DNA of 64,000 nt, from contig JAZSEC010000024.1 of NCBI GenBank assembly GCA_045531485.1, positions 3,666 to 67,665 on the forward strand, in the 5' to 3' direction. This document shows positions 5,501 through 41,363 of the stretch, piece after piece. Position 1 is the first letter of the stretch, and each line of letters begins with the position of its first letter. Below the pieces are notes generated by a model. The model saw only the letters and a program-made list of their open reading frames with translations, was not told the DNA's origin and searched no databases. Made by a program: the position numbers and the translations under genes. This DNA is from Eubacteriales bacterium. GTDB taxonomy: Bacteria > Bacillota > Clostridia > Oscillospirales > CAG-272.

Positions 5501-5573
5501 CGCTTGTTTGCTTCGACCTTACTGACGCTCGCTTTAAAGTATATTTAATAATTACATTAATTAATAAAAAGAC

Positions 5574-5603
5574 TTGATTTCTATTTACTTAGTATGATAT
5601 AAT
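5574..5603 (+). promoter_or_regulatory. Sigma-70-type promoter for the 5663 lipoprotein gene
   Basis: TTGATT, 18 nt, then TGATATAAT (TG-extended -10), about 60 nt upstream of the start. Confidence 0.55.
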
Positions 5604-5662
5604 TATTAGAGTGAGAAACTATTTTAATTTAATACAAAAATTTAATACAAAGGAGACTCAAA

Positions 5663-8434
5663 ATGAAAAGAATCATTTGTCTTATCCTCGCGATGGTGCT
5701 CTGCCTTGCAGTGTTCACCGGCTGTGAGCAGATCGAAGGCATCCTTGGCAACCTCGGTATCGGCGGCAGCACTACCGACGAGGGCGTTGACAAGGCTCAC
5801 ACCTATCTGTCCGAAATGTATAAGGACCTTAGTGGCTCTCATGCAAAGGACTTTGACGTTGTGGCTCAGGTTGTTATCGGCGGTGTTAAGTACCCCGTAG
5901 CATGGACTGCTGACAGCGACAAGGTTACTATCAGAGAAAGCGTTAAGACCGGCTACTACACCGTAGACGTTCCCGACGACAATGCGGAGGAATTCAGCTT
6001 TACTCTTACCGCAACCATCTCCTCTACCTCCAGCAAGGCAACCAAGGACAAGACCTTTACTATCAAGGTTCCCGCGGCTACTGCTGAGGACGTTCTCTCC
6101 ATTCCCGCAGCTCTCGAGCTCGGTAAGGCACAGGCAAACAGCTCCTACACTACCGAAAAGTACTACGTAACAGGTAAGGTTACCAGCATCACCAACGAAA
6201 TGTACGGCAACCTTTACATCGCAGACGAGGACGGCAACGAGATCCTTGTTTACGGTACGTACGATGCTACCGGTAAGGTAAGATTCGATAAGATGGCTAC
6301 CAAGCCTGCAGTTGGTGACACCGTTACCTTCTACAGCGTTGTTGGTAACTATAACGGTACTCCCCAGCTCAAGAACGGCTGGCTCGTAGCTATTAACGGC
6401 GAGGAGCTTGGCGGTGGCAGCCAGGGCGGAGACAATGGCAACGGTGGCAACACCAGCGGCGTTCTTCTCGATATGATGGGCTCTACCAACGTTGAGAGCT
6501 ACTCTGCAACCCAGCTTATCTACTCCGCAAACGGCATCACTCTTACCAACGATAAGAACAGCTCCAGCACCGACTGCTATAACAACACCAGCAGCTATGC
6601 TGCAAGATTCTATGCAGGTTCTACCATTAAGATCGAGTACAAGGGAATGACCAAGATCGTTCTTACTCTCGATGATTATTCTCCCGACGGAACCAAGACC
6701 TATCTTGCAGGCTTCGACGGTATGAGCGTTGAGGGTGCGACCATCGTTCGTAACCACGACGTAGTTACCATTTACTTCGCAGCAGCTACCGACGTATTCC
6801 AGTCTGCAGCACTCGGCTCTCAGGTCAGAGTTGAACAGATCGAGGTATTCACCGGTGCGGTTGAGACTCCTCCTGCAGATGATGAAAACCAGGGCGGAGG
6901 CGAGGCTAACTATGATGCTCCCGTAGCAAATCAGGCATACAAGCTTTACCTCGTTCAGGGTAACGAAAACAAGACCTACTACTTCGCAGGTACTATGGAT
7001 GCAGATAAGGGTACATACCTTGCAACCACCGTGGACTACGCTGCATCTGTTGACATCTTCTTCGAGACCGTTTCGGGTGGATATCACATCTACTTCATGA
7101 ACGGTAACGACAAGACCTACATCAACGCAGCTGCTTATCTTAAGGATAACGGCTATGCAGGCTGCCACTTCGAGCTTGGCTCCGAGCCCATCTGCGTATG
7201 GACCTACAACACCACCTACGGCATCATCGAGGTTTATGATGAGATCGAGGGCAAGTCTGATACCTTCTTCGCAGGTACCTACGGCTCATACAACACCATC
7301 TCCCTCTCCGGTGCGTACTACAAGGATCAGATTTCCTCCGGCACTCAGTTCCCTGCAAGAATCGTTATTTCCGACGGCAAGGCTCCCGAGCAGGGCGGCA
7401 ACCAGGGCGGCAACGACTCCGGTAACCAGGGCGGCAATGACTCCGGTAACCAGGGCGGCAATGACTCTGCAAGCGGCTACGTTAATGCAACCGTGCTTGA
7501 CGAAAACACCCTTTACCTCCTCGGAGGTAAGAACAAGGCGGGTGCTATCTACTTCAAGGGCACTCTTACCGGCGGCCGTATCGACGCTGATGCAAATGCA
7601 TCCGGTGCGGTAGGCGTTAAGCTTGAGGCTACCGAGGTAGCAGGCGAGTATTACATCTACTTCGAAAGCAACGGAACAAGAACCTATATCGGTGCTAATT
7701 CCGCTGCAACCGAGAACAAGACCTCTCAGTTCCTTCTTGCTACCGAGAAGGGTGAGGATTACGTATGGATTATCGACGTTGATGCACAGACCATCGTGGC
7801 AAAGGCATTCTCCGGCAGATTTATCGCTACCAACGTGACCTCCGAGTACAATAACTTCAGCACCTACTCCACCTCCAATCTTGGCAAGGCTGAGTATGCA
7901 GGTGCATGGCTTCTCGTTCCCGGCGAGGGTGGCAGCACCACTCCCGAGACTCCTGAGAATCCCGAAACTCCCGAGAATCCCGAGAATCCTGAAACTCCCG
8001 AGAATCCCGAAACTCCCGAAACTCCCGTTGACCCCGTTCCCTCCGGATCGGTAGAGATCTCCTTCTCCGACGTAGCAAACAGAGTAAGCTTCGAAGCCTC
8101 CGAGCAGGTTTGGGAGCAGAACGGTATCAAGGTTATCAACGAGAAGGCAGGCAGCACCTCTAACGTTGCTGACTACTCCAACCCTGCAAGATTCTACAAG
8201 AACTCCAACCTTACCGTTGAGTACGCAGGCATGATCAAAATCGACTTCGTATGCGATACCCCCAGTTATGCAAACGCACTCGTAGCGGCAATCGCAGAGA
8301 CCGACGGTGTTAGCGTAAGCTCTGACGGTGCGGTTGTTACCGTTACCTTCAGCGAGGCTGTTTCCAGCTTCACCATCTCCGCTCTTTCCGGCGGTCAGGT
8401 TCGTATGGACGGCATCACCGTATACACCAAGTAA
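5663..8434 (+). CDS. Large surface lipoprotein, paralogue of 2974-5448 (one OB-like module, duplicated unknown domains)
   Basis: RBS AAGGAG; lipobox FTGC. The OB-like module at 6158-6385 (KYYVTGKVTSITNEMYGNLYIADEDGNEILVYG...KPAVGDTVTFYSVVGNYNGTPQLKNGWL) closely matches the modules of the upstream gene. It has an internal duplication of an approximately 150-aa domain (about 6940-7370 and 7510-7920). It also has two copies of a domain containing ARFY...(I/V)EY.GM.KI and ending QVR...I.V(F/Y)T (about 6460-6850 and 8040-8431). Confidence 0.75.
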   Translation: MKRIICLILAMVLCLAVFTGCEQIEGILGNLGIGGSTTDEGVDKAHTYLSEMYKDLSGSHAKDFDVVAQVVIGGVKYPVAWTADSDKVTIRESVKTGYYTVDVPDDNAEEFSFTLTATISSTSSKATKDKTFTIKVPAATAEDVLSIPAALELGKAQANSSYTTEKYYVTGKVTSITNEMYGNLYIADEDGNEILVYGTYDATGKVRFDKMATKPAVGDTVTFYSVVGNYNGTPQLKNGWLVAINGEELGGGSQGGDNGNGGNTSGVLLDMMGSTNVESYSATQLIYSANGITLTNDKNSSSTDCYNNTSSYAARFYAGSTIKIEYKGMTKIVLTLDDYSPDGTKTYLAGFDGMSVEGATIVRNHDVVTIYFAAATDVFQSAALGSQVRVEQIEVFTGAVETPPADDENQGGGEANYDAPVANQAYKLYLVQGNENKTYYFAGTMDADKGTYLATTVDYAASVDIFFETVSGGYHIYFMNGNDKTYINAAAYLKDNGYAGCHFELGSEPICVWTYNTTYGIIEVYDEIEGKSDTFFAGTYGSYNTISLSGAYYKDQISSGTQFPARIVISDGKAPEQGGNQGGNDSGNQGGNDSGNQGGNDSASGYVNATVLDENTLYLLGGKNKAGAIYFKGTLTGGRIDADANASGAVGVKLEATEVAGEYYIYFESNGTRTYIGANSAATENKTSQFLLATEKGEDYVWIIDVDAQTIVAKAFSGRFIATNVTSEYNNFSTYSTSNLGKAEYAGAWLLVPGEGGSTTPETPENPETPENPENPETPENPETPETPVDPVPSGSVEISFSDVANRVSFEASEQVWEQNGIKVINEKAGSTSNVADYSNPARFYKNSNLTVEYAGMIKIDFVCDTPSYANALVAAIAETDGVSVSSDGAVVTVTFSEAVSSFTISALSGGQVRMDGITVYTK
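7397..7468 (+). repeat. 24-bp coding repeat x3 (GNQGGNDS)
   Basis: Three near-identical 24-bp units of the form ggcaaccagggcggcaacgactcc. Confidence 0.9.
7943..8026 (+). repeat. Pro-Glu-(Thr/Asn) coding repeat (PETPENPETPENPENPETPENPETPETP)
   Basis: Repeated cccgagact / cccgagaat 9-bp units. Confidence 0.9.
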
Positions 8435-8450
8435 TTTCTTTACTAAATAA

Positions 8451-8483
8451 AAACCGCATCCCTCGGGGTGCGGTTTTCTTTTT
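8451..8483 (+). terminator. Rho-independent terminator
   Basis: aaccgcatccc / ggggtgcggtt stem followed by a T-run. Confidence 0.8.
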
Positions 8484-8513
8484 GCTTTTCGCTTCTATAT
8501 TTTGTAAAAGCAC

Positions 8514-8542
8514 TTGATTATGTGCGTAATAAATGATATAAT
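8514..8542 (+). promoter_or_regulatory. Sigma-70-type promoter for the RNase lipoprotein gene
   Basis: TTGATT, 17 nt, then TGATATAAT. Confidence 0.55.
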
Positions 8543-8577
8543 GCTATTGTAGAAATTTGCGTCTGCGAGGAAAACGA

Positions 8578-9891
8578 ATGAAAAATCTGACTAGAATATT
8601 GGCGGCGTTGCTGCTTGTATTTGTATTAATATTCAATACCGTATCCTGCGATCTGATAAAGGATTACGTAAGCGGTAATCTCGGCGGAAATCAGGATAAC
8701 AACGACACCTCGGATCTTGCCTTTTATTTTGACGAGGCAACCACCGTTAAGATCGAGGTTGGAGAAAGCAAAGAGCTTAAGCTTGTCAAGGACGAGGCTC
8801 TTACGGGCGAGGTTATCTGGACAAGCAGTAACAGCTGTGCGGCGGTAGAAAACGGTGTGGTTACCGGTATATCCGTAGGCAAGGCTGTTATCAAGGCGGA
8901 GCTTGGAAGCAAATACGACAGACTTATCGTAGACGTCAAAGCAAAAAGCGGCTCCGACAGCGATGGCGAGGAGGATGACGGACGTGGAGATACCGTTATC
9001 GTTCCCGGCACCGAGGATCCCGTTACCTCCGACCCCTACGTCAACGTTGATAAAGAGGAGTTCTACGCAAATTACACCCCTGCAAAGAGCTATATGGATT
9101 CCTATTACAGAAGCCAACATAATCTTATGTCTGGTAGCATCAACGAGCAGGACCAGGAGCCCTCTGTATCGGATTTCAGGCCTACGTATAGCGGAAAATA
9201 CGTCAGAAACAATCTTTACCTCTTCTCTGAGGACGGAAATACATATTACGTGGTTGACTGCTACGGTGAGGTTGCCTTTGAGATCTATAAGGGTGGTGCC
9301 TACGTAGTTCTTGAGGAGGTTGCGGCATACGTATTTGCCTTTGGCGAGCCTCCTGCAAACCATTCGGATTCTAAGAAAACCAAGCCCTCCCAGAGTGAGT
9401 GGGGCATTTACCTCAGGGTAAATAACACCAAATTCAGCGGTGATACCTCAAAATATCCATACGAGCCTGTGCTTCCCCGCATTTCCGGCTGTGGCGGAGA
9501 TCTTACCTACTATGAAATGGATATTGGAACGACCGGTACAGACTGTGACCCGGGCTATGCTGTCCGTCCCTACAACAACGGTAGCTCAATAACCAGAGGT
9601 GCGGCAAGAATCGTCTATTCCTGCAAGGACAGAAATGGCAATAAAATCATTGACCTTGACGAAAGATACGTGTTCTACACCTATAATCACTATAACGATT
9701 TCCAGGAATACCTGAACTACCTCGGTGGATGGGGTGAGATGTTTGGCAACGTTACCGGTGGCGGAACGCTGTCCAGCAAGACGCACTATAATCCTACCCC
9801 CTACGTTGCCGTTCATTTCGGCAGCCTGAAGGAGATATCCTCTAGGGCGATACTCTATTGCTACCTTCCTAAAAAGGAGTATGCGGCATAA
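8578..9891 (+). CDS. Secreted lipoprotein: Big_2 (bacterial Ig-like) domain plus a barnase / RNase Sa-family (microbial N1/T1-type) ribonuclease domain
   Basis: RBS GAGGAAAA before ATG 8578; lipobox NTVSC. The Big_2-like segment is VKIEVGESKELKL...IWTSSNSCAAVENGVVTGISVGKAVIKAEL. The RNase domain (about 9304-9711) has LEEVAAYVFAFGEPPANH (barnase FDGVADYLQTYHKLPDNY) and TYYEMDI (barnase WREADI, catalytic Glu). It also has TRGAARIVYS (FRNSDRILYS, two Arg) and FYTYNHYNDF (YKTTDHYQTF, catalytic His). Confidence 0.75.
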   Translation: MKNLTRILAALLLVFVLIFNTVSCDLIKDYVSGNLGGNQDNNDTSDLAFYFDEATTVKIEVGESKELKLVKDEALTGEVIWTSSNSCAAVENGVVTGISVGKAVIKAELGSKYDRLIVDVKAKSGSDSDGEEDDGRGDTVIVPGTEDPVTSDPYVNVDKEEFYANYTPAKSYMDSYYRSQHNLMSGSINEQDQEPSVSDFRPTYSGKYVRNNLYLFSEDGNTYYVVDCYGEVAFEIYKGGAYVVLEEVAAYVFAFGEPPANHSDSKKTKPSQSEWGIYLRVNNTKFSGDTSKYPYEPVLPRISGCGGDLTYYEMDIGTTGTDCDPGYAVRPYNNGSSITRGAARIVYSCKDRNGNKIIDLDERYVFYTYNHYNDFQEYLNYLGGWGEMFGNVTGGGTLSSKTHYNPTPYVAVHFGSLKEISSRAILYCYLPKKEYAA

Positions 9892-9914
9892 TTCTTTCAC
9901 AGGTTTTATAAAAC

Positions 9915-9950
9915 AAAAAAGACGAAAATCGCTTGATTTTCGTCTTTTTT
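9915..9950. terminator. Bidirectional terminator between the convergent RNase and surE genes
   Basis: aaaaaa-gacgaaaatc-gctt-gattttcgtc-tttttt. Confidence 0.85.
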
Positions 9951-9968
9951 CTTTCTTTTTGTAATGTT

Positions 9969-10697
9969 TTATTTACAAATTTCCTTAATTTTTTCAAATG
10001 CCACGAAGTTCGTGCGGTTGTGAACAAGAGGAGTTATGGACACAAATCCATCTCTTACGCTATCGGTATCAAGCTCGTCGTCACCCTCGTTTTCCATTAT
10101 GATATGACCGCCCTGCTCCCACATATCATCACCGAGATACTTATACTCGTCGTGGAAGTATACGCCGCCCTGCTTGGTCACTCTGATCTCACCGTGAGCG
10201 TCAGGCAGATTTACGTTATAAAGCATATTTTCTTCAAGGAGGTGGTTATCCATAATGAAATTATAAGCCTTATCAAGATGAGCACGTGCACCGTCAAGAG
10301 TAGTGGGCTCGGTGGAAAAGGCAATGCCGGGTATACCAAGTCTGCCGCCCTCGAAAATTGCACCTGCAGTTCCCGAATAAACGATATCCTTACCCAGATT
10401 AAAGCCACGGTTAATGCCCGAAAGAATAAGGTCGAACTGACCCTTCATGCCAAGAACGGCATATCTGATACAGTCGGCGGGTGTGGAGTCCATAGAATAG
10501 GCGGTAACGCCCTCCATAAGATCAACCTTCTTTATCTCTATGGGTCTGGTGAAGTCGATGGCGTGGCTCTTGCCGCTCTGCTCCACCTTAGGTGCTACGA
10601 CGGTAACCTCACCCTTTGTTTTAGCCCACTCTGCCAAAAACGCTATTCCCTCGGCAAAAATGCCGTCGTCGTTGGTTATAAGTATTCTCATAGCCAC
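9969..10697 (-). CDS. surE: 5'/3'-nucleotidase SurE
   Basis: The N-terminus MRILITNDDGIFAEGI...VTVVAPKVEQSGKSHA matches the SurE hallmark (ILxSNDDG ... VVAP...SG). 242 aa. Its start overlaps the stop of the upstream DHH gene by 10 nt. Confidence 0.9.
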   Translation of the reverse strand: MAMRILITNDDGIFAEGIAFLAEWAKTKGEVTVVAPKVEQSGKSHAIDFTRPIEIKKVDLMEGVTAYSMDSTPADCIRYAVLGMKGQFDLILSGINRGFNLGKDIVYSGTAGAIFEGGRLGIPGIAFSTEPTTLDGARAHLDKAYNFIMDNHLLEENMLYNVNLPDAHGEIRVTKQGGVYFHDEYKYLGDDMWEQGGHIIMENEGDDELDTDSVRDGFVSITPLVHNRTNFVAFEKIKEICK

Positions 10698-11668
10698 CCC
10701 TTGTTATTTTCCTTATATTCCTTAAGTCTTGCATCTGCATCTGCAATAAGGCTTTCCATTTCCTCTACCGAATATACGGTTGCACCTGCGGCACACGCGT
10801 GGCCGCCTCCGCGATACTTTTCACCGATGGAGTTGATGGTTACGAATCTGGAACGAAGGCGAACTCTGATGCTGCCGTCGTCATTGTCGATAAATGCAAG
10901 CCAGATAAGGCTGTTCTTGATGGAATCCATAAGAGAAACCGAAGCACTGGCATCCTCCTGAGAAAGACCAAATCTCTCCTGCATCTCCTTTGTAACGTGG
11001 AGATATGCAACGCCGTTCTCGGTGATCTTCATCTCACCGTAGGCGTAGGCCTCAAACTTATAAACGTGGAAGTCCTTCATATAGAGATTTGCATACATCT
11101 TATCGGTGTCTATACCGATATCAAGAAGCATACCTGCAAGACGCATTGTGTCGCCCGACACATCTCTGAATCTGAAGCGGCCGGAGTCGGTAACCATACC
11201 GCAATAAATGTAGGTAGCCGCCTCGCTGTCGATCTTAAGCTCATCCTTGAAGGTGGCGTAGAAGTCTGCGATCATCTCGCAGGCGGAGGAACGCTCCTCC
11301 TCAACCCACATAGGCTCGCCATAGGGGGCGATATTGATATGATGGTCGATCTTGATAAGCTCACGGCAAAGGGCGAATTTCTGATTCGAGATCCTTTCCT
11401 TTGTACCGGTGTCAATAACGATGCCCAGTGCATCGGCGTAAAGCTCGTCTGCAATAGGTGCATCCTCATCACCGAGGAAGGACATATATTCTGCAAAATC
11501 GGCATTCTGAAGAAGGATCTCCTTCTCGGGATAGGTAAGCTTCAGTATTCTCTGAAGTCCCTTGGTAGAGCCGGTAGCATCACCGTCGGGTCTTTTGTGA
11601 CGGAAGATGATGATTCTGTTATATTCCTTGATTTTATCAAGTATCTGCTTTTTAACCTCGTAATTCAT
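10688..11668 (-). CDS. nrnA: DHH/DHHA1 phosphoesterase, NrnA-like nanoRNase / pAp phosphatase
   Basis: Motifs FRHKRPDGDATGS, VIDTG, IDHHIN (DHH) and GGGHACAAGA (DHHA1 GGGH). 326 aa. Confidence 0.85.
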   Translation of the reverse strand: MNYEVKKQILDKIKEYNRIIIFRHKRPDGDATGSTKGLQRILKLTYPEKEILLQNADFAEYMSFLGDEDAPIADELYADALGIVIDTGTKERISNQKFALCRELIKIDHHINIAPYGEPMWVEEERSSACEMIADFYATFKDELKIDSEAATYIYCGMVTDSGRFRFRDVSGDTMRLAGMLLDIGIDTDKMYANLYMKDFHVYKFEAYAYGEMKITENGVAYLHVTKEMQERFGLSQEDASASVSLMDSIKNSLIWLAFIDNDDGSIRVRLRSRFVTINSIGEKYRGGGHACAAGATVYSVEEMESLIADADARLKEYKENNKGWL

Positions 11669-33227: not shown

Positions 33228-33249
33228 TTTATTTTCCTCCGTTTATAAA

Positions 33250-33268
33250 ATATGAATATTGTTCATAT
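33250..33268. promoter_or_regulatory. Candidate operator palindrome just downstream of the acyl-CoA operon promoter
   Basis: ATATGAA-tattg-TTCATAT, a perfect 7-bp inverted repeat between the -10 box and the RBS. A TetR gene lies divergent. Confidence 0.4.
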
Positions 33269-33281
33269 TTTTTACATCTTA

Positions 33282-33310
33282 ATTATATCATTTTTACATG
33301 TATTTGTCAA
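33282..33310 (-). promoter_or_regulatory. Consensus promoter of the acyl-CoA / Liv gene run
   Basis: The minus strand reads TTGACA, 17 nt, then TATAAT, a perfect consensus. Confidence 0.7.
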
Positions 33311-33380: not shown

Positions 33381-33409
33381 TTGCAAAAGGACTCAAAAAA
33401 TGTTATAAT
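33381..33409 (+). promoter_or_regulatory. Promoter for the tetR / Cys-repeat lipoprotein unit
   Basis: TTGCAA, 17 nt, then TATAAT. Confidence 0.6.
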
Positions 33410-33441: not shown

Positions 33442-34053
33442 ATGACGAATAATATACTTGATGTCAAGGGAATCAACCTTCCCAAAACCAAGCTTGGACA
33501 AACGAAGATGGAAAAGCTGCTGACTGCATCAGAGGAGCTTTTTGCCAAAAACGGATTTTACGGCACCTCCATTTCCGACATTTGCAAGCACGCAGGTACA
33601 GCGGTCGGCACCTTCTACATATATTTTGAAACAAAGACCGACGTCTACAAATATCTGATGGAAACCTATAAGAAGGCCATAAAGGACCGCCTTGCAGAGA
33701 GCATCAGGGACTGCGACACAAGATATGAAAGAGAGCGTGCTGGTATAAAGTGCTTTATAAAGTACGCCGTATCCACACCTAACGTATACAACATTATCTG
33801 GGGCAGCCTTTCCATCGACAGAAAGCTGTTCGTCGACTACTACGAATCCTTCGCTGCCAGCTACTCCAGAGCACTTAAAAAGGACGGAGCGGAGGTCACG
33901 GCTGAGGATACCGAGTCGGTGGCATATATGCTGATGGGTATTTCCAACTTCCTGGGTCTTAAGGCTATATTCACAAGCATGAGTGACGAGGAGATAGACG
34001 AAATGGTTGACCGTACCGTTATGCCCGCCCTGGTAAGAGGGGTAATAAAATAA
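33442..34053 (+). CDS. TetR/AcrR family transcriptional regulator
   Basis: N-terminal HTH LLTASEELFAKNGFYGTSISDICKHAGTAVGTFYIYFETK. Divergent from the acyl-CoA operon. Confidence 0.85.
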   Translation: MTNNILDVKGINLPKTKLGQTKMEKLLTASEELFAKNGFYGTSISDICKHAGTAVGTFYIYFETKTDVYKYLMETYKKAIKDRLAESIRDCDTRYERERAGIKCFIKYAVSTPNVYNIIWGSLSIDRKLFVDYYESFAASYSRALKKDGAEVTAEDTESVAYMLMGISNFLGLKAIFTSMSDEEIDEMVDRTVMPALVRGVIK

Positions 34054-34073
34054 TCCATTACGGAGAGTCTTAA

Positions 34074-34991
34074 ATGAAGCAGATCAAACTCATTTTATCT
34101 ATTGTTCTGGCATTAGTGCTGACGGTGCCGCTTGCCTCCTGCGTAGGCAACGGTAATCAGCAGGGCGGAGGTAATTCCAGCTGCTTTGACCTGAACGGCG
34201 ACCACCGATGCGATATATGCCAGGCACTGGTAAGCCAATGCATCGACGAGGACCACGACCACTTCTGTGAAATATGCAAAAGGACTGCTACAACCTGCCC
34301 TTTGGACGAAAATCGCGACCACGTATGCGACATTTGTGAACTTTATATGGGAAATTGCTATGATCACGACGACACTCACGTATGTGATTATTGCGGTCTG
34401 CCGATGGTAGACTGTCAGGATATGGACGAGGATCATATCTGCGATTTCTGTAACCTTAAGCTTAGCGAATGTGCCGACACGGACACCAATCATTTGTGTG
34501 ATCTGTGTGGAAAAAGGCTTAGCAAATGTGCTGACAAGGAGTTGCTTGACCATATATGCGACTACTGTGGCATCACCCTGTCAGAATGCTATGACAAAAA
34601 CAAGGATCACGCCTGCGAATATTGTAGCAGAACTCTGTCCGTATGCGAAGATAAAAACGACGATCACCTCTGTGACGTATGCAAACGCAGCCTATCCGAA
34701 TGCAGAGATGTCAATAACGATTATTTCTGCGATCTGTGCGGCGATAAATATCCCGTGATCATTATAACCGCCGAGGATGATTGCCTTGTCAACGGCAAGG
34801 AAATCGAGAAAATATATCTCTTCGGATCCTTTTCCGATGTACTTTTCTCTTATGCCGGAAAGGACGGCAGAATGGTTGATTACTGGATAGTTTACGACGA
34901 GGCAGGAAATGAATTTGCCCGCGTATCTAACGGAGAATTTTATTATCTCGACACCCCCGGAAAATACACGGTTTCACCCGTTTTTAAGTAA
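34074..34991 (+). CDS. Lipoprotein made of ten tandem 19-20-aa Cys/Asp/His repeats plus an approximately 77-aa C-terminal beta-rich domain; no family recognised
   Basis: RBS GGAGAG; lipobox LASC and linker GNGNQQGGGNSS. Then 10 units of C-x-D-x3-4-(D/N)-H-x-C-(D/E)-x-C-x6-7, with 30 Cys in 192 aa. Confidence 0.8.
   Translation: MKQIKLILSIVLALVLTVPLASCVGNGNQQGGGNSSCFDLNGDHRCDICQALVSQCIDEDHDHFCEICKRTATTCPLDENRDHVCDICELYMGNCYDHDDTHVCDYCGLPMVDCQDMDEDHICDFCNLKLSECADTDTNHLCDLCGKRLSKCADKELLDHICDYCGITLSECYDKNKDHACEYCSRTLSVCEDKNDDHLCDVCKRSLSECRDVNNDYFCDLCGDKYPVIIITAEDDCLVNGKEIEKIYLFGSFSDVLFSYAGKDGRMVDYWIVYDEAGNEFARVSNGEFYYLDTPGKYTVSPVFK
34182..34757 (+). repeat. Ten in-frame 57/60-bp coding repeats (Cys-Asp-His units)
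   Basis: The units are CFDLNGDHRCDICQALVSQ, CIDEDHDHFCEICKRTATT, CPLDENRDHVCDICELYMGN, CYDHDDTHVCDYCGLPMVD and CQDMDEDHICDFCNLKLSE. The remaining five are CADTDTNHLCDLCGKRLSK, CADKELLDHICDYCGITLSE, CYDKNKDHACEYCSRTLSV, CEDKNDDHLCDVCKRSLSE and CRDVNNDYFCDLCGDKYPV. The nucleotide sequences are diverged while the C/D/H positions are kept. Confidence 0.9.
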
Positions 34992-36045: not shown

Positions 36046-36076
36046 AAAAACGATCGGGTCATCCCGGTCGTTTTTT
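36046..36076 (+). terminator. Rho-independent terminator after the AEC transporter gene
   Basis: aaaaacgatcggg-tcat-cccggtcg-tttttt. Confidence 0.8.
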
Positions 36077-36337
36077 GTTTTTTGCTTACATATTATATTT
36101 ATATCCTAATAGCCCGCGTTCTTTGTACGACACGGCTTTGCCGTTAAAAGAACCCCTTGGTAATTATGCACAAAAACCTTTTGTTTTTTTGTATGTCAAA
36201 GGTCAATTTTTACTTAAAAATATCAAAAATTTCAAGAAGAAAAATAATGTCCGTCAAAAAAATTAAGGCGAGTATTTTAGGCGTGATGTAAAATAGGTAA
36301 AAATTAAAATAGAAAAAATGGCCTTTTTAAAGATAAG

Positions 36338-36946
36338 ATGAACAATATTACATTCAAGCAATATCGAAATATTGACCTTTTTCTGTTCGGTGTAATGCTT
36401 GCGATATCCGAGGCGGTAACCACCGTTGCCACCAACAAATGGTTCTTCGCACAGCCAATTGCCATATCCACCACCTTTATCTTTATATGCATTGTAATGA
36501 TGCGGTGGAGCGGATTTGCGGCAATACACGCCTGCCTTGGCGGATTGGTTTTCTGCATTGCATCAGGAGCAGAGCTGCATCAATACATTATTTATATAAT
36601 AGGTAACTGTCTTGCCCTTGTGGCAATGCTGTGGTTTAAGCCTATCCCGAAGGAGAACATCCGACGTAAGCCATCAAGGCTGATACTCTTCACCGTCAGT
36701 GCCTATCTGCTTATGCAGGTCGGCAGATGGCTGGTTTCACTGGCCTTTGGCGGAGATCTTACGGCACTGCTGGTATACATTACCACCGACGTTATCACAC
36801 TGCTGTTTGCGGTAGTGATCATGCTGCTTATGAGAAACGTTGACGGTATGATAGAGGATCAGAAGTCATATCTTTTCCGCCTTCAGCGAGAGAAGGAGGA
36901 AAGCTCCCGTCCCGTTCCCGCCGTAGATTACGGCGAGGAAGAATAA
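36338..36946 (+). CDS. Hypothetical polytopic membrane protein (5-6 TM, acidic C-terminal tail)
   Basis: 202-aa ORF with sense-like codon usage and a weak RBS. Hydrophobic segments throughout; a loose resemblance to ECF S-components only. Confidence 0.5.
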   Translation: MNNITFKQYRNIDLFLFGVMLAISEAVTTVATNKWFFAQPIAISTTFIFICIVMMRWSGFAAIHACLGGLVFCIASGAELHQYIIYIIGNCLALVAMLWFKPIPKENIRRKPSRLILFTVSAYLLMQVGRWLVSLAFGGDLTALLVYITTDVITLLFAVVIMLLMRNVDGMIEDQKSYLFRLQREKEESSRPVPAVDYGEEE

Positions 36947-36985: not shown

Positions 36986-38047
36986 ATGAAAAAAATTGCA
37001 TCTGATTACCTTGTTTACGACGAGACCAAAGGTAAGTATTGTGAGGACCCTGAGCAGGCGGTCAGAGATGACGTTGAAAAGCATCACTGGCTGAACGTTG
37101 CCAGAACGGTGCTGAAGGATTGGCGTCTGTATCTGATGCTTGTTCCCATGCTTCTGGTATTCCTGTTCTGGAGATACTTCCCCATGTACGAGCTTCTCGG
37201 AGCATTCAAGGTTAACGACCGTACCCTTGACGTAGCAGACCAGCTGTACGCCGGCTTTGCCCACTTCCAGGAGCTGTTCTCCGGAGTTGGCTCTAAGTCC
37301 CTCGATTTCTGGAGAGCGTTCAGAAACACCTTCCTTCTCTCCTTCTACGGACTTTGCTTCGGCTTCCCGATGCCTATCATCATCGCCCTGTTCTTCAACG
37401 AGATCAAGTCGAACGTTGCACGAAGCATCTATCAGGTTGCTACATATCTTCCCAAGTTCATGTCTACGGTTGTTATGACCTCTCTTATCACGATGCTGGT
37501 AAGAAGAGCATCTCCCCTTATCGGTATGGAGATGGGTGTTATTTCTCAGCTGCTGGTTTCGATAGGAGCTATCACCCCTGAGGTTGGTAGTGCCGGTCTT
37601 CTGTATCAGCCTGAGTTCTTCCGTGCGATCTATCAGATAAGCGGTATATGGGAAACGGCAGGCTACGACTCGATCGTATTCTTCGCCGCGGTAATCGCGA
37701 TCTCGCCTACAAGCTATGAGGCGGCACAGATCGACGGTGCAGGCAAGATGGCACAGATGAGATACGTTGTTCTCCCCTCCATTCTTTCCACCATCGTTAT
37801 CATGCTTATCACCCGTATCGGCTCGCTTCTTAACGTTGGATACGAGAAGGTTCTTCTTCTCTCCAGAGAAGAGGTGTACGTAACCGCAGAGGTTGTTTCC
37901 ACCTACGCTCAGAGATACGGTATTGAGTCCACCAAGGGTGTAAGCATTGCATCGGCGGCGGAGATGCTTAATAACGTTGTTGGTATGCTTCTGGTTATCG
38001 GTGCAAACACCATAGCACGTAAGGCATCCGACGTTTCACTTTACTAA
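36986..38047 (+). CDS. Sugar ABC transporter permease, LplB-like (long N-terminal type)
   Basis: RBS GGAGG. KDWRLYLMLVPMLLVFLFWRYFPMY... plus an EAA-like region (YEAAQIDGAGKMAQMRYVVLP). Confidence 0.85.
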   Translation: MKKIASDYLVYDETKGKYCEDPEQAVRDDVEKHHWLNVARTVLKDWRLYLMLVPMLLVFLFWRYFPMYELLGAFKVNDRTLDVADQLYAGFAHFQELFSGVGSKSLDFWRAFRNTFLLSFYGLCFGFPMPIIIALFFNEIKSNVARSIYQVATYLPKFMSTVVMTSLITMLVRRASPLIGMEMGVISQLLVSIGAITPEVGSAGLLYQPEFFRAIYQISGIWETAGYDSIVFFAAVIAISPTSYEAAQIDGAGKMAQMRYVVLPSILSTIVIMLITRIGSLLNVGYEKVLLLSREEVYVTAEVVSTYAQRYGIESTKGVSIASAAEMLNNVVGMLLVIGANTIARKASDVSLY

Positions 38048-38070
38048 TTAAGAAAGGTTTGGACTAAGGC

Positions 38071-38964
38071 ATGAAAAGAAAATTAGAAATATCCGAACTT
38101 ATCTTTAAGATACTCAGCTATCTCTTCCTTACAGTGTTCGCTATCTGCTGTATCTACCCCTTCCTGTATGCTATATCGGCTGCAATAAGTGGCAGAGAGG
38201 CAGTTGAGTACGGTAGGATCATTCTCTTCCCCAAGGACGTTCAGTTCGGTGCGTTCAAGTTCATGTTCTCCAATAACATGTTCTGGAACTCCTACACCAA
38301 CACCCTGTTCGTTACCTTCTACGGTACACTCTGGGCTATGTTCGTTGCGATCCTCGGTGCTTACGCTCTTTCCAAGAAAAGACTGCTCTTCCGTAAGGGC
38401 TTTAACTTCTTCCTCGTATTCACCATGTGGTTCTCCGCAGGTGTCGTTCCTCAGTATCTGAATTACCTTGATACTCAGAAGGTATTTAAGGATTTCCTGG
38501 GAATTGCCGATGACAAGTGGCTTATCGTTATTGCCATGGGTATGGCGGCGATGAATATTATCCTTCTCCGTAACGCCTTCGAGGGTGTTCCCGCCGAGAT
38601 CGAGGAGGCCGCAATCGTTGACGGTGCTACCGAGCTTCAGGTTCTTACTCAGGTTTATCTTCCTATGAGTAAATCCACTCTTGCAACCGTTGCACTCTTC
38701 TTCGCTATCTCCCGTTGGAACGGTTACTACTGGGCACGTCAGATGATCCAGAACGAGAACGAGCATCCCCTTCAGGTATTTATCAAGATCCAGCTCGATA
38801 AGGTGCAGGAGTTTAACATGGACGGTGGTTGGAACAAGGCGTACGCTGCCGACTCTGAGATCTACGCACTTATCGTTTGCTCCATCATTCCCATCCTTGT
38901 TATTTACCCCTTCATTCAGAAGTACTTTGCTAAGGGTGTAAATATGGGTGGCGTTAAGGAATAA
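38071..38964 (+). CDS. Sugar ABC transporter permease, LplC-like
   Basis: 6-TM layout. EAA loop EIEEAAIVDGATELQVLTQVYLPMS; C-terminus FAKGVNMGGVKE. Confidence 0.85.
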   Translation: MKRKLEISELIFKILSYLFLTVFAICCIYPFLYAISAAISGREAVEYGRIILFPKDVQFGAFKFMFSNNMFWNSYTNTLFVTFYGTLWAMFVAILGAYALSKKRLLFRKGFNFFLVFTMWFSAGVVPQYLNYLDTQKVFKDFLGIADDKWLIVIAMGMAAMNIILLRNAFEGVPAEIEEAAIVDGATELQVLTQVYLPMSKSTLATVALFFAISRWNGYYWARQMIQNENEHPLQVFIKIQLDKVQEFNMDGGWNKAYAADSEIYALIVCSIIPILVIYPFIQKYFAKGVNMGGVKE

Positions 38965-39050
38965 TATACTATTCTACTTATTACTTTATTTAAGATTATT
39001 ATGCACTGGTCGTGCTGATAATAAAAATTTTTATTAGGAGGAATCCAAAA

Positions 39051-41363
39051 ATGACCAAAACTAGAATCATCGCGTTACTCCTTGTTCTTGTTATGACAAT
39101 GAGCTTCGCACTCACCAGCTGTGGTCTCTTCACTCCCGACGTTCCCGATGAAGGCGGAAATGGCGACGGCGGCGAAAATGAAAAGCCCGACGACGGTGAA
39201 AATGAAAAGCCCGACGACGGCGAAAATGAAAAGCCCGATGACGGCGAAGACGAAAAGCCTGAGGAAGACCTCACCTTTAAGCTTCCCTATGCTGAAGGCA
39301 CTACCCTTCGTATGGCTGCTGGTTACCAGAAGTCCAACACTAAGATCACCTTTGACGCTGATACCGTAGCTTCCTACGGCGAGGACGGTATTATCACCCT
39401 TGCTGACGGCAAGAGCTACCGTGCAGGCGACCTCAAGCCCACCTGGGTAGAGGTTCAGAACGTTCTCAAGGTTAACTTCGAGGATAAGTTCACCGGTGCA
39501 GGCAGTGCAGAGAAGGAATTCAACGTTTGGAAGGAAAAGCTCAATGAGGTTGATATGGTTTCCGGTTCCGCTTCCGTTCTTACCGAGGCAGGTACTGCAG
39601 GCGACCTTGTTAACATCGCTGACTACCTTGACGACATGCCTAACTTCAAGAAGTATCTTGAACAGAACCCCATCGTTCGTCTTTCCATCTCCAGCCCTGA
39701 TGAGAACGGCGAGCTTGGTGCAATCTACTTCTCTCCCTACTTCGACGGCGTTAACGACATCGAGCGTATGCCTCTTATGAGAGTTGACTGGGTTGCTAAG
39801 CTTCTTGACGGCGAGGGCGACTTCACCGCAGATAAGTCTCACAACCTTGCAGCAGCAGTTTACACTCCCTACATGCCTACCTCCGGTAAGGTATCCGTAG
39901 ACGTTGTTAAGCTTGATGCTACCGGCACTGAGACCGTTACTAAGGATTACGACGCAGCAGGCAACATCATCGACGTTATGAACAAAGCTCTTGCAAAGGG
40001 CAACGTTTCCGGCGTTGAGGCTGTTAACATGCTTCGTGACTACATCGACGTAGCATACGGCGGTTACTACGGCACCACTCGTTCCAACCTCTTCGTAGGT
40101 CAGAACGCTGCTTGGGACGCAGACGAGCTTGTAGCTCTTCTTCGTTGCGTAGTTGCTAACCCCTGGACTCTTAACGGCACTGATAACGTTGAGGGTCTCT
40201 TCTCCAGAGAAGATAACAACAACCAGAGAAGAGTTGACGTATTCCGCTTCACCGGTACCCTCTTCGGCGTACGTGGTCTTGAGTCCAGACAGGATTACCT
40301 CTACGTAGGTTCTGACGGTCTCCTTCACGACGCTCGTCAGGAAGAGAGCACTTACGTTGCACTCGAGAGAGTTAACGCAATGGTACAGGAAGGCCTTGTT
40401 TCCTCTTCCTTCGTAAACGGTGAGGAAACCAACACTGCCAAGATGCTTCAGAACGACCTTGGCTTCATGCACTACGACTACAACCAGACCCAGACCATTA
40501 ACAACGAAACCGTTCTTAACAAGGATGCTGATGGCAACCCTGTTGATCTCGGCGAGAAGTACATGGCAGTTATGATCCCCGTTGCTCGTTGGTTCGACGG
40601 TACCAATGCTAACGGCGTATACATGAGATTTACTGAGTCCTGGAGATCTGTTAAGACCGACGGTTGGGCAATCTCCAAGGCAGGTGTAGGCAACGATACC
40701 AACAAGCTCCACGCAGCTCTTGCTCTTATCGACTACGCTTACTCCGAGAAGGGTCAGATCCTTATGTCCTACGGTCCTGATGCTTTCATTAAGACCAATG
40801 CAGACGGTTCTTACGTAACCTTCGACTTCAACGGCAAGCAGATGCCCGTTATCGCAGACGCTACTTACACCGAGCTCTGGGATAAGGCAGGCGGTAACTA
40901 CACCAACTACGCTCGTTACTTCCTTGGTTCTACTCTTTCCTTCGTAAAGAGCCAGGCCTTCGAGTATCAGTGCACTCACGAGGTTGGTAAGGAAGGTGCA
41001 GGTAACATTTCCAACGCTATTAAGTACGGAACTATCAAGCACCCCGAGCTTGCAATCACTGATAACCCCTGGTACTCCATCGTTCCCACTACTCTTCCCA
41101 CTACTCAGGAAGCGAACGATGCTATCGCAGGTCTCACCGAGCTTTCCTCTAACGGTAAGTTCTCTCAGTCCAAGGGCAAGACTAACCTCCTCCTTGACAT
41201 TATCGTTGGCGGTTACAAGGGTGAAGGCATCGACTCCCGTGACGCTCTCCTTAACACTGTTTCCGCTAAGGCAAGTGAAGGCGGCTGGGGCGGTTCCATC
41301 TACCTCCTCTACAAGCAGGAAGCATACGATGCTCTTCTTGAGTACTATGCAAGCATCAGATAA
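39051..41363 (+). CDS. Large (approximately 770 aa) extracellular solute-binding lipoprotein, LplA-like
   Basis: RBS AGGAGG before ATG 39051; lipobox LTSC, then a GENEKPDD x4 linker. Its position after the two permeases and its size fit the LplA-type oligosaccharide-binding proteins of Firmicutes. Confidence 0.8.
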   Translation: MTKTRIIALLLVLVMTMSFALTSCGLFTPDVPDEGGNGDGGENEKPDDGENEKPDDGENEKPDDGEDEKPEEDLTFKLPYAEGTTLRMAAGYQKSNTKITFDADTVASYGEDGIITLADGKSYRAGDLKPTWVEVQNVLKVNFEDKFTGAGSAEKEFNVWKEKLNEVDMVSGSASVLTEAGTAGDLVNIADYLDDMPNFKKYLEQNPIVRLSISSPDENGELGAIYFSPYFDGVNDIERMPLMRVDWVAKLLDGEGDFTADKSHNLAAAVYTPYMPTSGKVSVDVVKLDATGTETVTKDYDAAGNIIDVMNKALAKGNVSGVEAVNMLRDYIDVAYGGYYGTTRSNLFVGQNAAWDADELVALLRCVVANPWTLNGTDNVEGLFSREDNNNQRRVDVFRFTGTLFGVRGLESRQDYLYVGSDGLLHDARQEESTYVALERVNAMVQEGLVSSSFVNGEETNTAKMLQNDLGFMHYDYNQTQTINNETVLNKDADGNPVDLGEKYMAVMIPVARWFDGTNANGVYMRFTESWRSVKTDGWAISKAGVGNDTNKLHAALALIDYAYSEKGQILMSYGPDAFIKTNADGSYVTFDFNGKQMPVIADATYTELWDKAGGNYTNYARYFLGSTLSFVKSQAFEYQCTHEVGKEGAGNISNAIKYGTIKHPELAITDNPWYSIVPTTLPTTQEANDAIAGLTELSSNGKFSQSKGKTNLLLDIIVGGYKGEGIDSRDALLNTVSAKASEGGWGGSIYLLYKQEAYDALLEYYASIR
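39171..39260 (+). repeat. 24-bp coding repeat x3.75 (GENEKPDD)
   Basis: ggcgaaaatgaaaagcccgacgac units with synonymous differences only, except in the last unit. Confidence 0.9.

Follow-up and report, generated by a model that had tools for sequence, protein, structure and literature searches.

Short metal-binding modules and long tandem arrays in surface proteins have been described from several systems. Zinc knuckles, zinc ribbons and rubredoxin knuckles share a CxxCG turn whose beta-bridge closes a hairpin, with four Cys/His ligands and Cys/His exchange, and the retroviral CCHC knuckle (PF00098) has the ligand order C-x2-C-x4-H-x4-C. Thrombospondin type-3 (TSP3) repeats are extracellular tandem Asp-rich loops between Cys that form a near-structureless wire, and their Cys are disulfide-bonded and without a His ligand. 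In the calcium-type Dx[DN]xDG loops, all surveyed metal-binding examples have Gly at loop position 6, and Ile, Leu or Val stands at position 8 (PMC3123361). Metallothioneins and SmtA-type stores are Cys/His-rich chains holding many metal ions. Periscope Proteins (SasG G5-E, Rib, SHIRT), which carry tandem arrays of 70-130 aa repeats between anchor and functional domains, are defined by highly identical tandem repeats whose copy number varies between close strains (PMC9704523). The element described here is a predicted lipoprotein of 305 aa, encoded by an open reading frame with an ATG start at 34074..34991 (+) in a 64,000-nt stretch (the window, meaning the whole stretch analysed) of contig JAZSEC010000024.1 from an Eubacteriales bacterium.

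The central part of this lipoprotein is an array of ten 19-20-aa units, and the unit belongs to a large repeat family without description in databases or literature, although of a kind already known (metal mini-domains, surface stalks). The best reading of the lipoprotein is a metal-stabilised stalk that holds a small head domain, which we consider rather probable. Like zinc knuckles and ribbons, the unit has a predicted knuckle hairpin and, as far as its conservation pattern tells, four Cys/His ligands with Cys/His exchange at one position. Unlike them, it is extracytoplasmic, bacterial and tandem with a fixed 19-residue period, its ligand order is C-x6-H-x-C-x2-C with a His that apparently serves the next unit, it carries an additional conserved Asp/Asn set, and the window protein has no significant match in Pfam or the PDB. 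The order also differs from that of the retroviral knuckle when read across units (H-x-C-x2-C-x6-C). Like the Periscope repeats, the units form tandem arrays between anchor and functional domains with a copy number variable across proteins, but at 19 aa they are far shorter, have a different fold and presumably depend on metal.

A preliminary description of this DNA, made from the letters alone, had reported a lipobox (LASC), a G/N/Q linker and ten tandem 19-20-aa units, and a regular-expression parse and a shuffle test bore this out. The lipoprotein pattern [LVI][ASTVI][GAS]C of Lgt/Lsp substrates is present at MKQIKLILSIVLALVLTVPLAS-C23, and a lipobox-like xxSC/xxGC is retained in the orthologues P0001, P0002, P0003, P0043 and P0045; the extracytoplasmic placement proposed earlier was upheld. 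The parse gave exactly ten units starting at residues 37, 56, 75, 95, 114, 133, 152, 172, 191 and 210 (nt 34182, 34239, 34296, 34356, 34413, 34470, 34527, 34587, 34644 and 34701), with periods of 19, 19, 20, 19, 19, 19, 20, 19 and 19 residues and the pattern C-x-D-x-[DN]-x-[DN]-H-x-C-D-x-C-(G)-x-x-L-S-x. Since the motif never occurred more than once per shuffle in 20,000 composition-preserving shuffles of the mature protein, chance is excluded for the ten-unit array.

All 30 Cys reported earlier fall within residues 37-222, with regular spacing throughout (C-x8/9-C-x2-C-x6-C), and His occupies the pattern position in nine of the ten units; the tenth alone has Tyr (Tyr217), as had been stated. 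The count of nine His holds for pattern positions, the array region containing 11 in total with H61 and H98 outside the pattern. The pattern had also been called invariant, and while all ten units parse, unit 3 has its Asp at +3 (C-P-L-D) and unit 4 has Thr instead of D/N before His. The described divergence of the nucleotide repeats was confirmed: pairwise identity between units averages 52% (range 42-63%), Tandem Repeats Finder detects just 1.9 copies, and synonymous Cys, Asp and His codons are mixed across the units, both codons of each being in use. No further copies were found elsewhere in the window.

To display the conservation within the unit, a logo was built from 1,299 units spaced at exactly 19 residues, taken from 147 proteins, in which C10 and C13 served as the anchors for unit extraction. 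At position 1, 81% of units have Cys and 18% have His, and position 8 is His in 91%, rising to 98% in internal units. The acidic set consists of position 3 (D 89%), position 5 (D 45%, N 40%; D/N 85%), position 7 (D 71%, N 20%; D/N 91%) and position 11 (D 91%). Positions 12 and 17 are hydrophobic, position 14 is Gly in 66%, and position 18 is Ser or Thr in 76%. In 157 units without the acidic loop, all four Cys/His positions are still held as H/H/C/C (consensus H-E-A-A-x-G-x-H-x-C-x-Y-C, for example H-E-A-A-E-G-K-H-T-C-D-Y-C), but D11 is present in only 44% of them, compared with 95% otherwise (odds ratio 26, p 2e-56). D3, D/N5, D/N7 and D11 therefore covary and behave as a group under joint selection, apart from the [C/H]-H-C-C tetrad. 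That Cys and His replace each other at position 1, and that a unit has three Cys, speaks for metal ligands and not for disulfides, and the conservation suggests that [C/H]1, H8, C10 and C13 form a four-ligand metal site per unit.

The acidic set falls on positions 1, 3, 5 and 9 of the Dx[DN]xDG/EF-hand loop, and the unit has the D at loop position 1, the D/N at 3 and 5 and the downstream acidic/amide ligand of such loops. Array-final units often read D-x-D-x-D-G, with Gly at loop position 6 in 42 of 146, while internal units have His there in 98% and, unlike the surveyed loops, Cys at position 8. Like TSP3 and other Ca-plus-Cys mini-modules, the array places extracellular tandem Asp-rich loops between Cys in a near-structureless wire, and it would probably depend on Ca(II); unlike TSP3, it has three Cys and one His per unit with Cys/His interchange. 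The calcium-loop and TSP3 likeness noted in the preliminary description is thus retained in loop spacing and D11 covariation, but not at the family level, since the TSP_3 model (PF02412) did not match the protein at E<=1, and a cut-off of E<=10 brought no match to its array or to the 60-plus-unit array of L002. Binding of Ca(II) by the acidic set is plausible from the sequence.

To assign each His to its Cys partners, array ends were used as natural experiments. Across 2,070 units, the occurrence of H8 correlated strongly with that of Cys/His at the start of the following unit (odds ratio 42, p 5e-93), and no association was found with Cys1 of its own unit (odds ratio 0.9, p = 1). Array-final units keep H8 in 147 of 159 cases (92%) when a Cys/His follows, and in 41 of 146 (28%) when none does, the substitutes being mostly G, Y, N, D and F. 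At the other end, 23 of 59 first units have an extra His or Cys two residues before Cys1 (H-x-C or C-x-H caps), and this cap looks like a stand-in for the missing upstream His. Tyr217 of unit 10 is an instance of the array-final rule. The data suggest that site i is made of Cys1, Cys10 and Cys13 of unit i with His8 of unit i-1, an interlocked Cys3His arrangement, which is preferred because it explains both array ends. In the window protein its ten sites would account for every one of the 30 Cys and of the nine pattern His. Of the earlier proposal of a Cys3His set in each unit, the four-ligand site was retained and the pairing of the His with its own Cys1 was not.

Two other assignments were considered. 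The second-best reading is a contiguous H-x-C-x2-C-x6-C module, which fits the coupling of His to the next Cys and the tighter C13-to-C1 spacing (6 residues in 90%, compared with 77% in the C1-to-H8 loop), but it has no role for the first Cys1, found in 91% of first units, or for the CxxC at the array end. An intra-unit Cys3His site fails to explain the array-final His loss and the N-terminal H-x-C caps. A Cys-Asp thioether modification by a radical-SAM enzyme (ranthipeptide-like) was set aside, as no radical-SAM/SPASM gene was found in the operon or its neighbours.

For structure prediction, residues 95-171 were modelled with AlphaFold2 on an 82-row alignment (A3) of four-unit segments from the family, giving a mean predicted local distance difference test score (pLDDT) of 88.7 and a predicted template modelling score (pTM) of 0.64. 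Secondary structure assignment with DSSP found no helices and one isolated beta-bridge per unit, from the residue before C10 to the third residue after C13; in this model the bridge is the CxxC knuckle hairpin. The pTM suggests a defined geometry between units. A Foldseek search of PDB folds with the repeat gave no significant match (E>=1.9), and neither the single protein nor profiles A3 and A4 had a significant match among PDB sequences (best profile E 0.013). Non-significant echoes of the unit in sequence or fold came from zinc fingers, Rpb12, eS27, rubredoxin and zinc ribbons, and the zf-BED and zf-C2H2 models were grazed by His-variant relatives.

An exhaustive profile search of 1.84 billion protein representatives returned 929 protein clusters at E<=1e-3, 539 at E<=1e-10 and 205 at E<=1e-30. 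A word-index homologue search had given only nine relatives and, with a 3-unit profile, one fragment. Most carriers of the unit are proteins of 1,000-6,000 aa, with copy numbers from 3 to more than 60 and extracellular modules such as BspA-type LRR, Flg_new, Metallophos and GLUG. By knuckle count, a 2,943-aa carrier from a Clostridia metagenome-assembled genome (MAG) of a cow sample has 41 units, and a 1,976-aa carrier from an Eubacteriales MAG (L002) has about 66; the three genomes to which carriers were traced are of uncultured Clostridia or Eubacteriales. When the protein, its array and ten relatives were scanned, no Pfam-A or NCBIfam model covered the unit, even in carriers with 40-60 units, and the window protein matched nothing in Pfam better than E 0.17. 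No paper describing the repeat motif was found in the literature. The suspicion that the repeat was unrecognised was therefore confirmed by profile searches of Pfam, NCBIfam and the PDB. A PF27309 (MJ0753_N) label on fragment P0024 was a faint match absent from true family members and was set aside as spurious.

Several carriers showed further features. The L002 protein (5566-11496) is lipoprotein-like, and its array is encoded as a 57-nt repeat in 54.8 copies that are 77% identical and show a higher-order period of 285 nt (five units), so that it is more Periscope-like than the window protein. Its C-terminal H-x-H-x-D-H-like motif THIHSDHIGG suggests a metallo-beta-lactamase-fold enzyme held on a stalk. 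A longer Cys/His module often flanks the arrays (P0006, P0008, P0009, P0025, P0026, L001), in the form H-x-W-x-E-C-x-C-G... or ...A-T-C-x(n)-C-x2-C-G...H; it has no Pfam model either, and it may be a larger relative of the 19-aa unit. Short-period variants of about 15 aa occur in P0148 and P0111 (L-C-x-D-G-x-D-x-x-H-x-C-D-x-C-G with a 4-residue spacer), and these lipoproteins end in or contain the beta head domain of the window protein.

The orthologues of the window protein were compared with regard to array and sequence. At the positions covered by all five sequences (units 5-10; 43-51% overall identity), the Cys and His columns are all kept, while repeat positions other than Cys, His and Asp are merely 27% identical. 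The preliminary description had argued for selection on the C/D/H columns and had named their loss in orthologues as a point against it; at the positions covered, the Cys and His columns were found to be kept. Copy number is near-constant at 9-10 units with unit-by-unit correspondence, the 20-aa units 3 and 7 stand at identical positions in all orthologues, and unit 10 has Tyr or Phe at the His position in 10 of 11. The array is old and stable. The window lipoprotein falls outside the Periscope definition because its units are 52% identical in DNA and its copy number is nearly fixed.

Against the orthologue contigs, the lipoprotein is by far the fastest-diverging gene product of the locus, with an amino-acid identity of 43-48%, followed by the AEC transporter (64-80%), TetR (75-85%), the electron transfer flavoprotein (ETF) alpha subunit (82-91%) and the flanking acyl-CoA enzymes thiolase, ETF beta, acyl-CoA dehydrogenase (ACAD) and MaoC (95-98%). 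The synonymous divergence (dS) is 0.55-0.75 in the acyl-CoA operon and 1.6 in tetR, and it is saturated in the lipoprotein and AEC genes. The segment 33442-36946 (tetR, lipoprotein, AEC and a 202-aa gene) is much more diverged than its flanks when compared with L013, L004, L007, L003 and L011, with amino-acid identities of 43-85% as against 91-98%. Long-standing allelic divergence, a patch of recombination or diversifying selection on a surface cassette could each account for this.

The placement of the array in its carriers was determined in two groups, namely 35 carriers with a C-terminal transmembrane segment followed by Lys/Arg (TM+KR anchor) and 58 with an N-terminal signal and without a C-terminal anchor. 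In the first group, the distance from array end to anchor is at most 60 aa in 17 of 35 carriers, where random placement predicts 2.5, and it never exceeds 208 aa. In the second, 24 of 58 arrays begin no more than 60 aa from the signal peptide (random expectation 6.0), each of these 24 in a protein with a lipobox-like motif. The array is usually the membrane-proximal element, in either orientation. Membrane-proximal is the stalk position, as for rod-like surface-protein repeats (PMC9704523). Of the three roles suggested in the preliminary description, the evidence is most in favour of a structural stalk that carries the C-terminal domain.

The analysis shows the sequence pattern, the size of the family, the covariation, the placement beside anchors and a confident AlphaFold2 model; that the units bind metal, which metals these are, how the ligands interlock, how rigid the rod is and what the protein does are what we infer. 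The product would be a lipid-anchored extracytoplasmic protein in which a flexible linker is followed by a rod of ten metal-knuckle units and a 77-aa beta-sandwich head. Each unit would form a CxxC(G) knuckle hairpin, and a tetrahedral metal, most likely Zn(II), would be held by Cys1, Cys10 and Cys13 together with the His8 of the preceding unit, so that successive units would be stapled together by shared metal sites. The proposed sites 1-4 are C37/C46/C49 (no His), H44+C56/C65/C68, H63+C75/C85/C88 and H83+C95/C104/C107; sites 5-7 would be H102+C114/C123/C126, H121+C133/C142/C145 and H140+C152/C162/C165; and sites 8-10 would be H160+C172/C181/C184, H179+C191/C200/C203 and H198+C210/C219/C222. 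Tyr217 is spare because no unit follows unit 10. D3, D/N5, D/N7 and D11 probably bind Ca(II) or otherwise cap the loop between two sites. The array would be structural, replacing disulfide-stabilised modules in a reducing habitat and holding the head away from the membrane, and across the family the array would serve extracytoplasmic proteins as a stalk or spacer close to the membrane.

Several points weigh against this picture. The internal His at the place where the surveyed Dx[DN]xDG loops have Gly weakens the case for Ca(II) (PMC3123361). Full-length AlphaFold2 prediction with five orthologues gave a pLDDT of about 35-45 for the array, so that the confident model depends on the repeat-derived alignment. 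The interlocked ligands are deduced from covariation at array ends only, and unit 1 of the window protein, which has neither an upstream His nor an H-x-C cap, would leave one site as Cys3 only. Of the 58 signal-bearing carriers that lack a C-terminal anchor, 34 have the array far from the signal, and many carriers are metagenomic fragments in which anchors may be missed. The stalk role also leaves the tie to the TetR regulator and the AEC transporter unexplained, and since the whole region is syntenic in close relatives, gene linkage is weak evidence of shared function.

Four other explanations were weighed against the metal-stabilised stalk. The repeat could itself be a working surface, an adhesin or a metal-dependent self-association module binding a host, glycan or cell-wall ligand, as in the Zn-dependent G5-E of SasG/Aap. 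The fastest divergence of the locus would suit an exposed interaction surface and adhesin-type modules such as the BspA LRR occur in carriers, but the inter-ligand positions are almost unconstrained beside the fully kept Cys/His columns, which leaves little for a conserved binding surface, copy number ranges from 3 to more than 60, and the arrays lie nearest the membrane and not at the distal tip; this explanation is unlikely. The preliminary description had suggested a Zn/Fe/Cu/Cd buffer or a metallochaperone. In such a metal buffer, store or chaperone, the ten sites would take up and release Zn, Cu, Cd or Fe at the cell surface, either as protection for the cell or as a source for transporters. 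The very high ligand density (30 Cys and nine pattern His in 192 residues), the surface tethering and an operon with a regulator and a transporter speak for it, and like metallothioneins and SmtA-type stores the protein is Cys/His-rich and likely to hold many metal ions per chain. Four protein ligands with fixed spacing are typical of structural and not of exchangeable sites, and unlike metallothioneins the array has regular spacing, one isolated four-ligand site per unit, no CC/CxC clusters, no metallothionein family match in Pfam or NCBIfam, and an architectural context inside multidomain proteins. The regulator is TetR-type with acyl-CoA/FadR-type nearest members and not ArsR/SmtB, MerR or Zur, the transporter belongs to the AEC family and is not a metal transporter, the divergent operon encodes acyl-CoA enzymes, and no metal-homeostasis gene is present in the tetR-lipoprotein-AEC operon. 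The occurrence of the unit in 929 clusters of large multidomain surface proteins, preferentially beside the anchor, indicates a structural role, and the buffer was not upheld, being quite unlikely.

A calcium-only wire stabilised by disulfides, as in TSP3 repeats, would have the Asp bind Ca(II) and the Cys form disulfides. The covarying D-x-[DN]-x-[DN]...D spacing, the frequent D-x-D-x-D-G of final units and a model almost without regular secondary structure all fit such a wire. It is made very unlikely by the odd number of Cys (three per unit), the His at position 1 in nearly a fifth of units, the retention of H/H/C/C where the Asp are missing, the near-invariant internal His8 and the missing TSP_3 match; stable extracellular disulfides are also unlikely if the habitat is reducing, as might be expected from the origin of L001 and L002 (Clostridia/Eubacteriales MAGs, one from a cow sample). 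Redox-active, rubredoxin-like Fe (Cys3His) centres could form an electron relay across the cell envelope, given that CxxCG knuckles are common to rubredoxins, that rubredoxin and zinc ribbons are among the non-significant fold matches and that the metal centres would form a linear chain outward from the membrane. With no significant Foldseek match, no CXXCH haem motif (none of the ten CxxC knuckles precedes a His), no respiratory or electron-transfer partner in the operon and one centre per 19 residues of extended chain, which is probably too far for efficient tunnelling, the relay is extremely unlikely. The metal-stabilised stalk accordingly remains the reading preferred here.

The features of the gene and its surroundings are listed in Table 1.

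Table 1. Positions of the lipoprotein gene's parts and of neighbouring features in the window.
Feature	Position	Strand	Basis and remarks
Promoter-like site TTGCAA-17-TATAAT with TG, 5' of tetR	33381..33409	+	Consensus scan, 10/12 matches; consensus match only
TetR-family regulator, 203 aa, first gene of putative operon	33442..34053	+	PF00440 TetR_N, E 2.5e-13
Ribosome-binding site GGAGAG	34062..34067	+	Direct sequence reading; 6 nt 5' of ATG
Signal peptide, residues 1-23, lipobox L-A-S-C, Cys23 predicted lipidated residue	34074..34142	+	Sequence; N-terminus MKQIKLILSIVLALVLTVPLASC
Flexible G/N/Q-rich linker VGNGNQQGGGNSS, 13 aa, residues 24-36	34143..34181	+	Sequence; AlphaFold2 pLDDT <50
Ten-unit array, 19-20 aa each, residues 37-228	34182..34757	+	Motif parse, shuffle test, family logo, AlphaFold2
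All-beta head domain, 77 aa, C-terminal, residues 229-305	34758..34988	+	AlphaFold2 strands, pLDDT ~56-82
AEC-family (Mem_trans) transporter, 328 aa	35055..36041	+	PF03547 E 2.4e-18; TIGR00946 auxin efflux carrier E 1.2e-16, below cut-off
Intrinsic-terminator-like hairpin, 13-bp stem, T-run	36046..36085	+	Terminator scan

The head domain (residues 229-305) has no Pfam match and no PDB sequence match. Its Foldseek matches were weak and not significant, to small Ig-like sandwiches including SpyCatcher/CnaB2 (E 0.017), and in P0111 and P0148 this domain likewise stands after repeat arrays. The idea of a divergent InlB B-repeat was dropped, as it is without Pfam support and Foldseek points to no more than a generic small Ig-like sandwich.

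The neighbouring genes are arranged as described earlier, the lipoprotein gene beginning 20 nt past the tetR stop and the AEC gene following it; the distance to the latter is 63 nt. The terminator scan found no comparably strong terminator from tetR to the end of the AEC gene. Together with the promoter-like site before tetR and the hairpin after AEC, this suggests that tetR, the lipoprotein gene and AEC form one transcription unit. On every orthologue contig long enough to show it, tetR precedes the lipoprotein gene, and AEC follows it in L003, L004, L005, L011 and L013. TetR shows sub-threshold similarity to FadR and RefZ-type regulators. Transcribed divergently are genes for MaoC dehydratase, acyl-CoA dehydrogenase, ETF beta and alpha, thiolase and a short-chain dehydrogenase. 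An inverted repeat (TATAAAATATGAA-N5-TTCATATTTTTTA, 92% complementary, 33244-33274) stands in the intergenic region from which the two directions diverge, flanked by the start of maoC and by a minus-strand promoter-like sequence that matches the consensus perfectly (TTGACA-17-TATAAT, 33310..33282). It is a candidate operator through which TetR would control the acyl-CoA operon. The gene 3' of AEC (36338-36946, +) encodes a multi-pass membrane protein of 202 aa without a Pfam match, with an equivalent position in L003 and L013 and 61-78% identity where found. Farther downstream, a 783-aa ORF (39012-41363, +) without a Pfam match at E<=1e-5 stands directly 3' of two ABC permease genes (36986-38964); it has 76% identity in L013, where the gene call is 725 aa. 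No tRNA genes are present in the window.

It is possible, though we hold this tentatively, that the repeat represents a new class of extracellular fold, in which a chain of Zn(Cys3His) knuckles interlocks itself because every unit gives its His to the site of the following one, with Ca-type Asp clusters between the sites. Such a metal-zippered rod would replace disulfide-rich modules in anaerobic Firmicutes, and the stiffness and reach of hundreds of gut and rumen surface proteins would be set by ambient Zn and Ca.

If the metal-stabilised stalk holds, a 19-residue module in at least 929 protein clusters is unannotated and merits a family entry in the domain databases. Many of the carriers are the largest surface proteins of uncultured Clostridia, the identified sources being a cow sample and other metagenomes. 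An annotation rule would also follow, in which an array adjoining a lipobox or a C-terminal anchor is taken as a stalk, and this would help to parse giant hypothetical proteins. A compact, genetically extensible, metal-dependent rod would be added to the protein-engineering toolbox. The fastest divergence within a conserved neighbourhood would mark the lipoprotein as an exposed surface component, possibly under diversifying pressure, and strict anaerobes would be building rigid extracellular spacers without disulfides.

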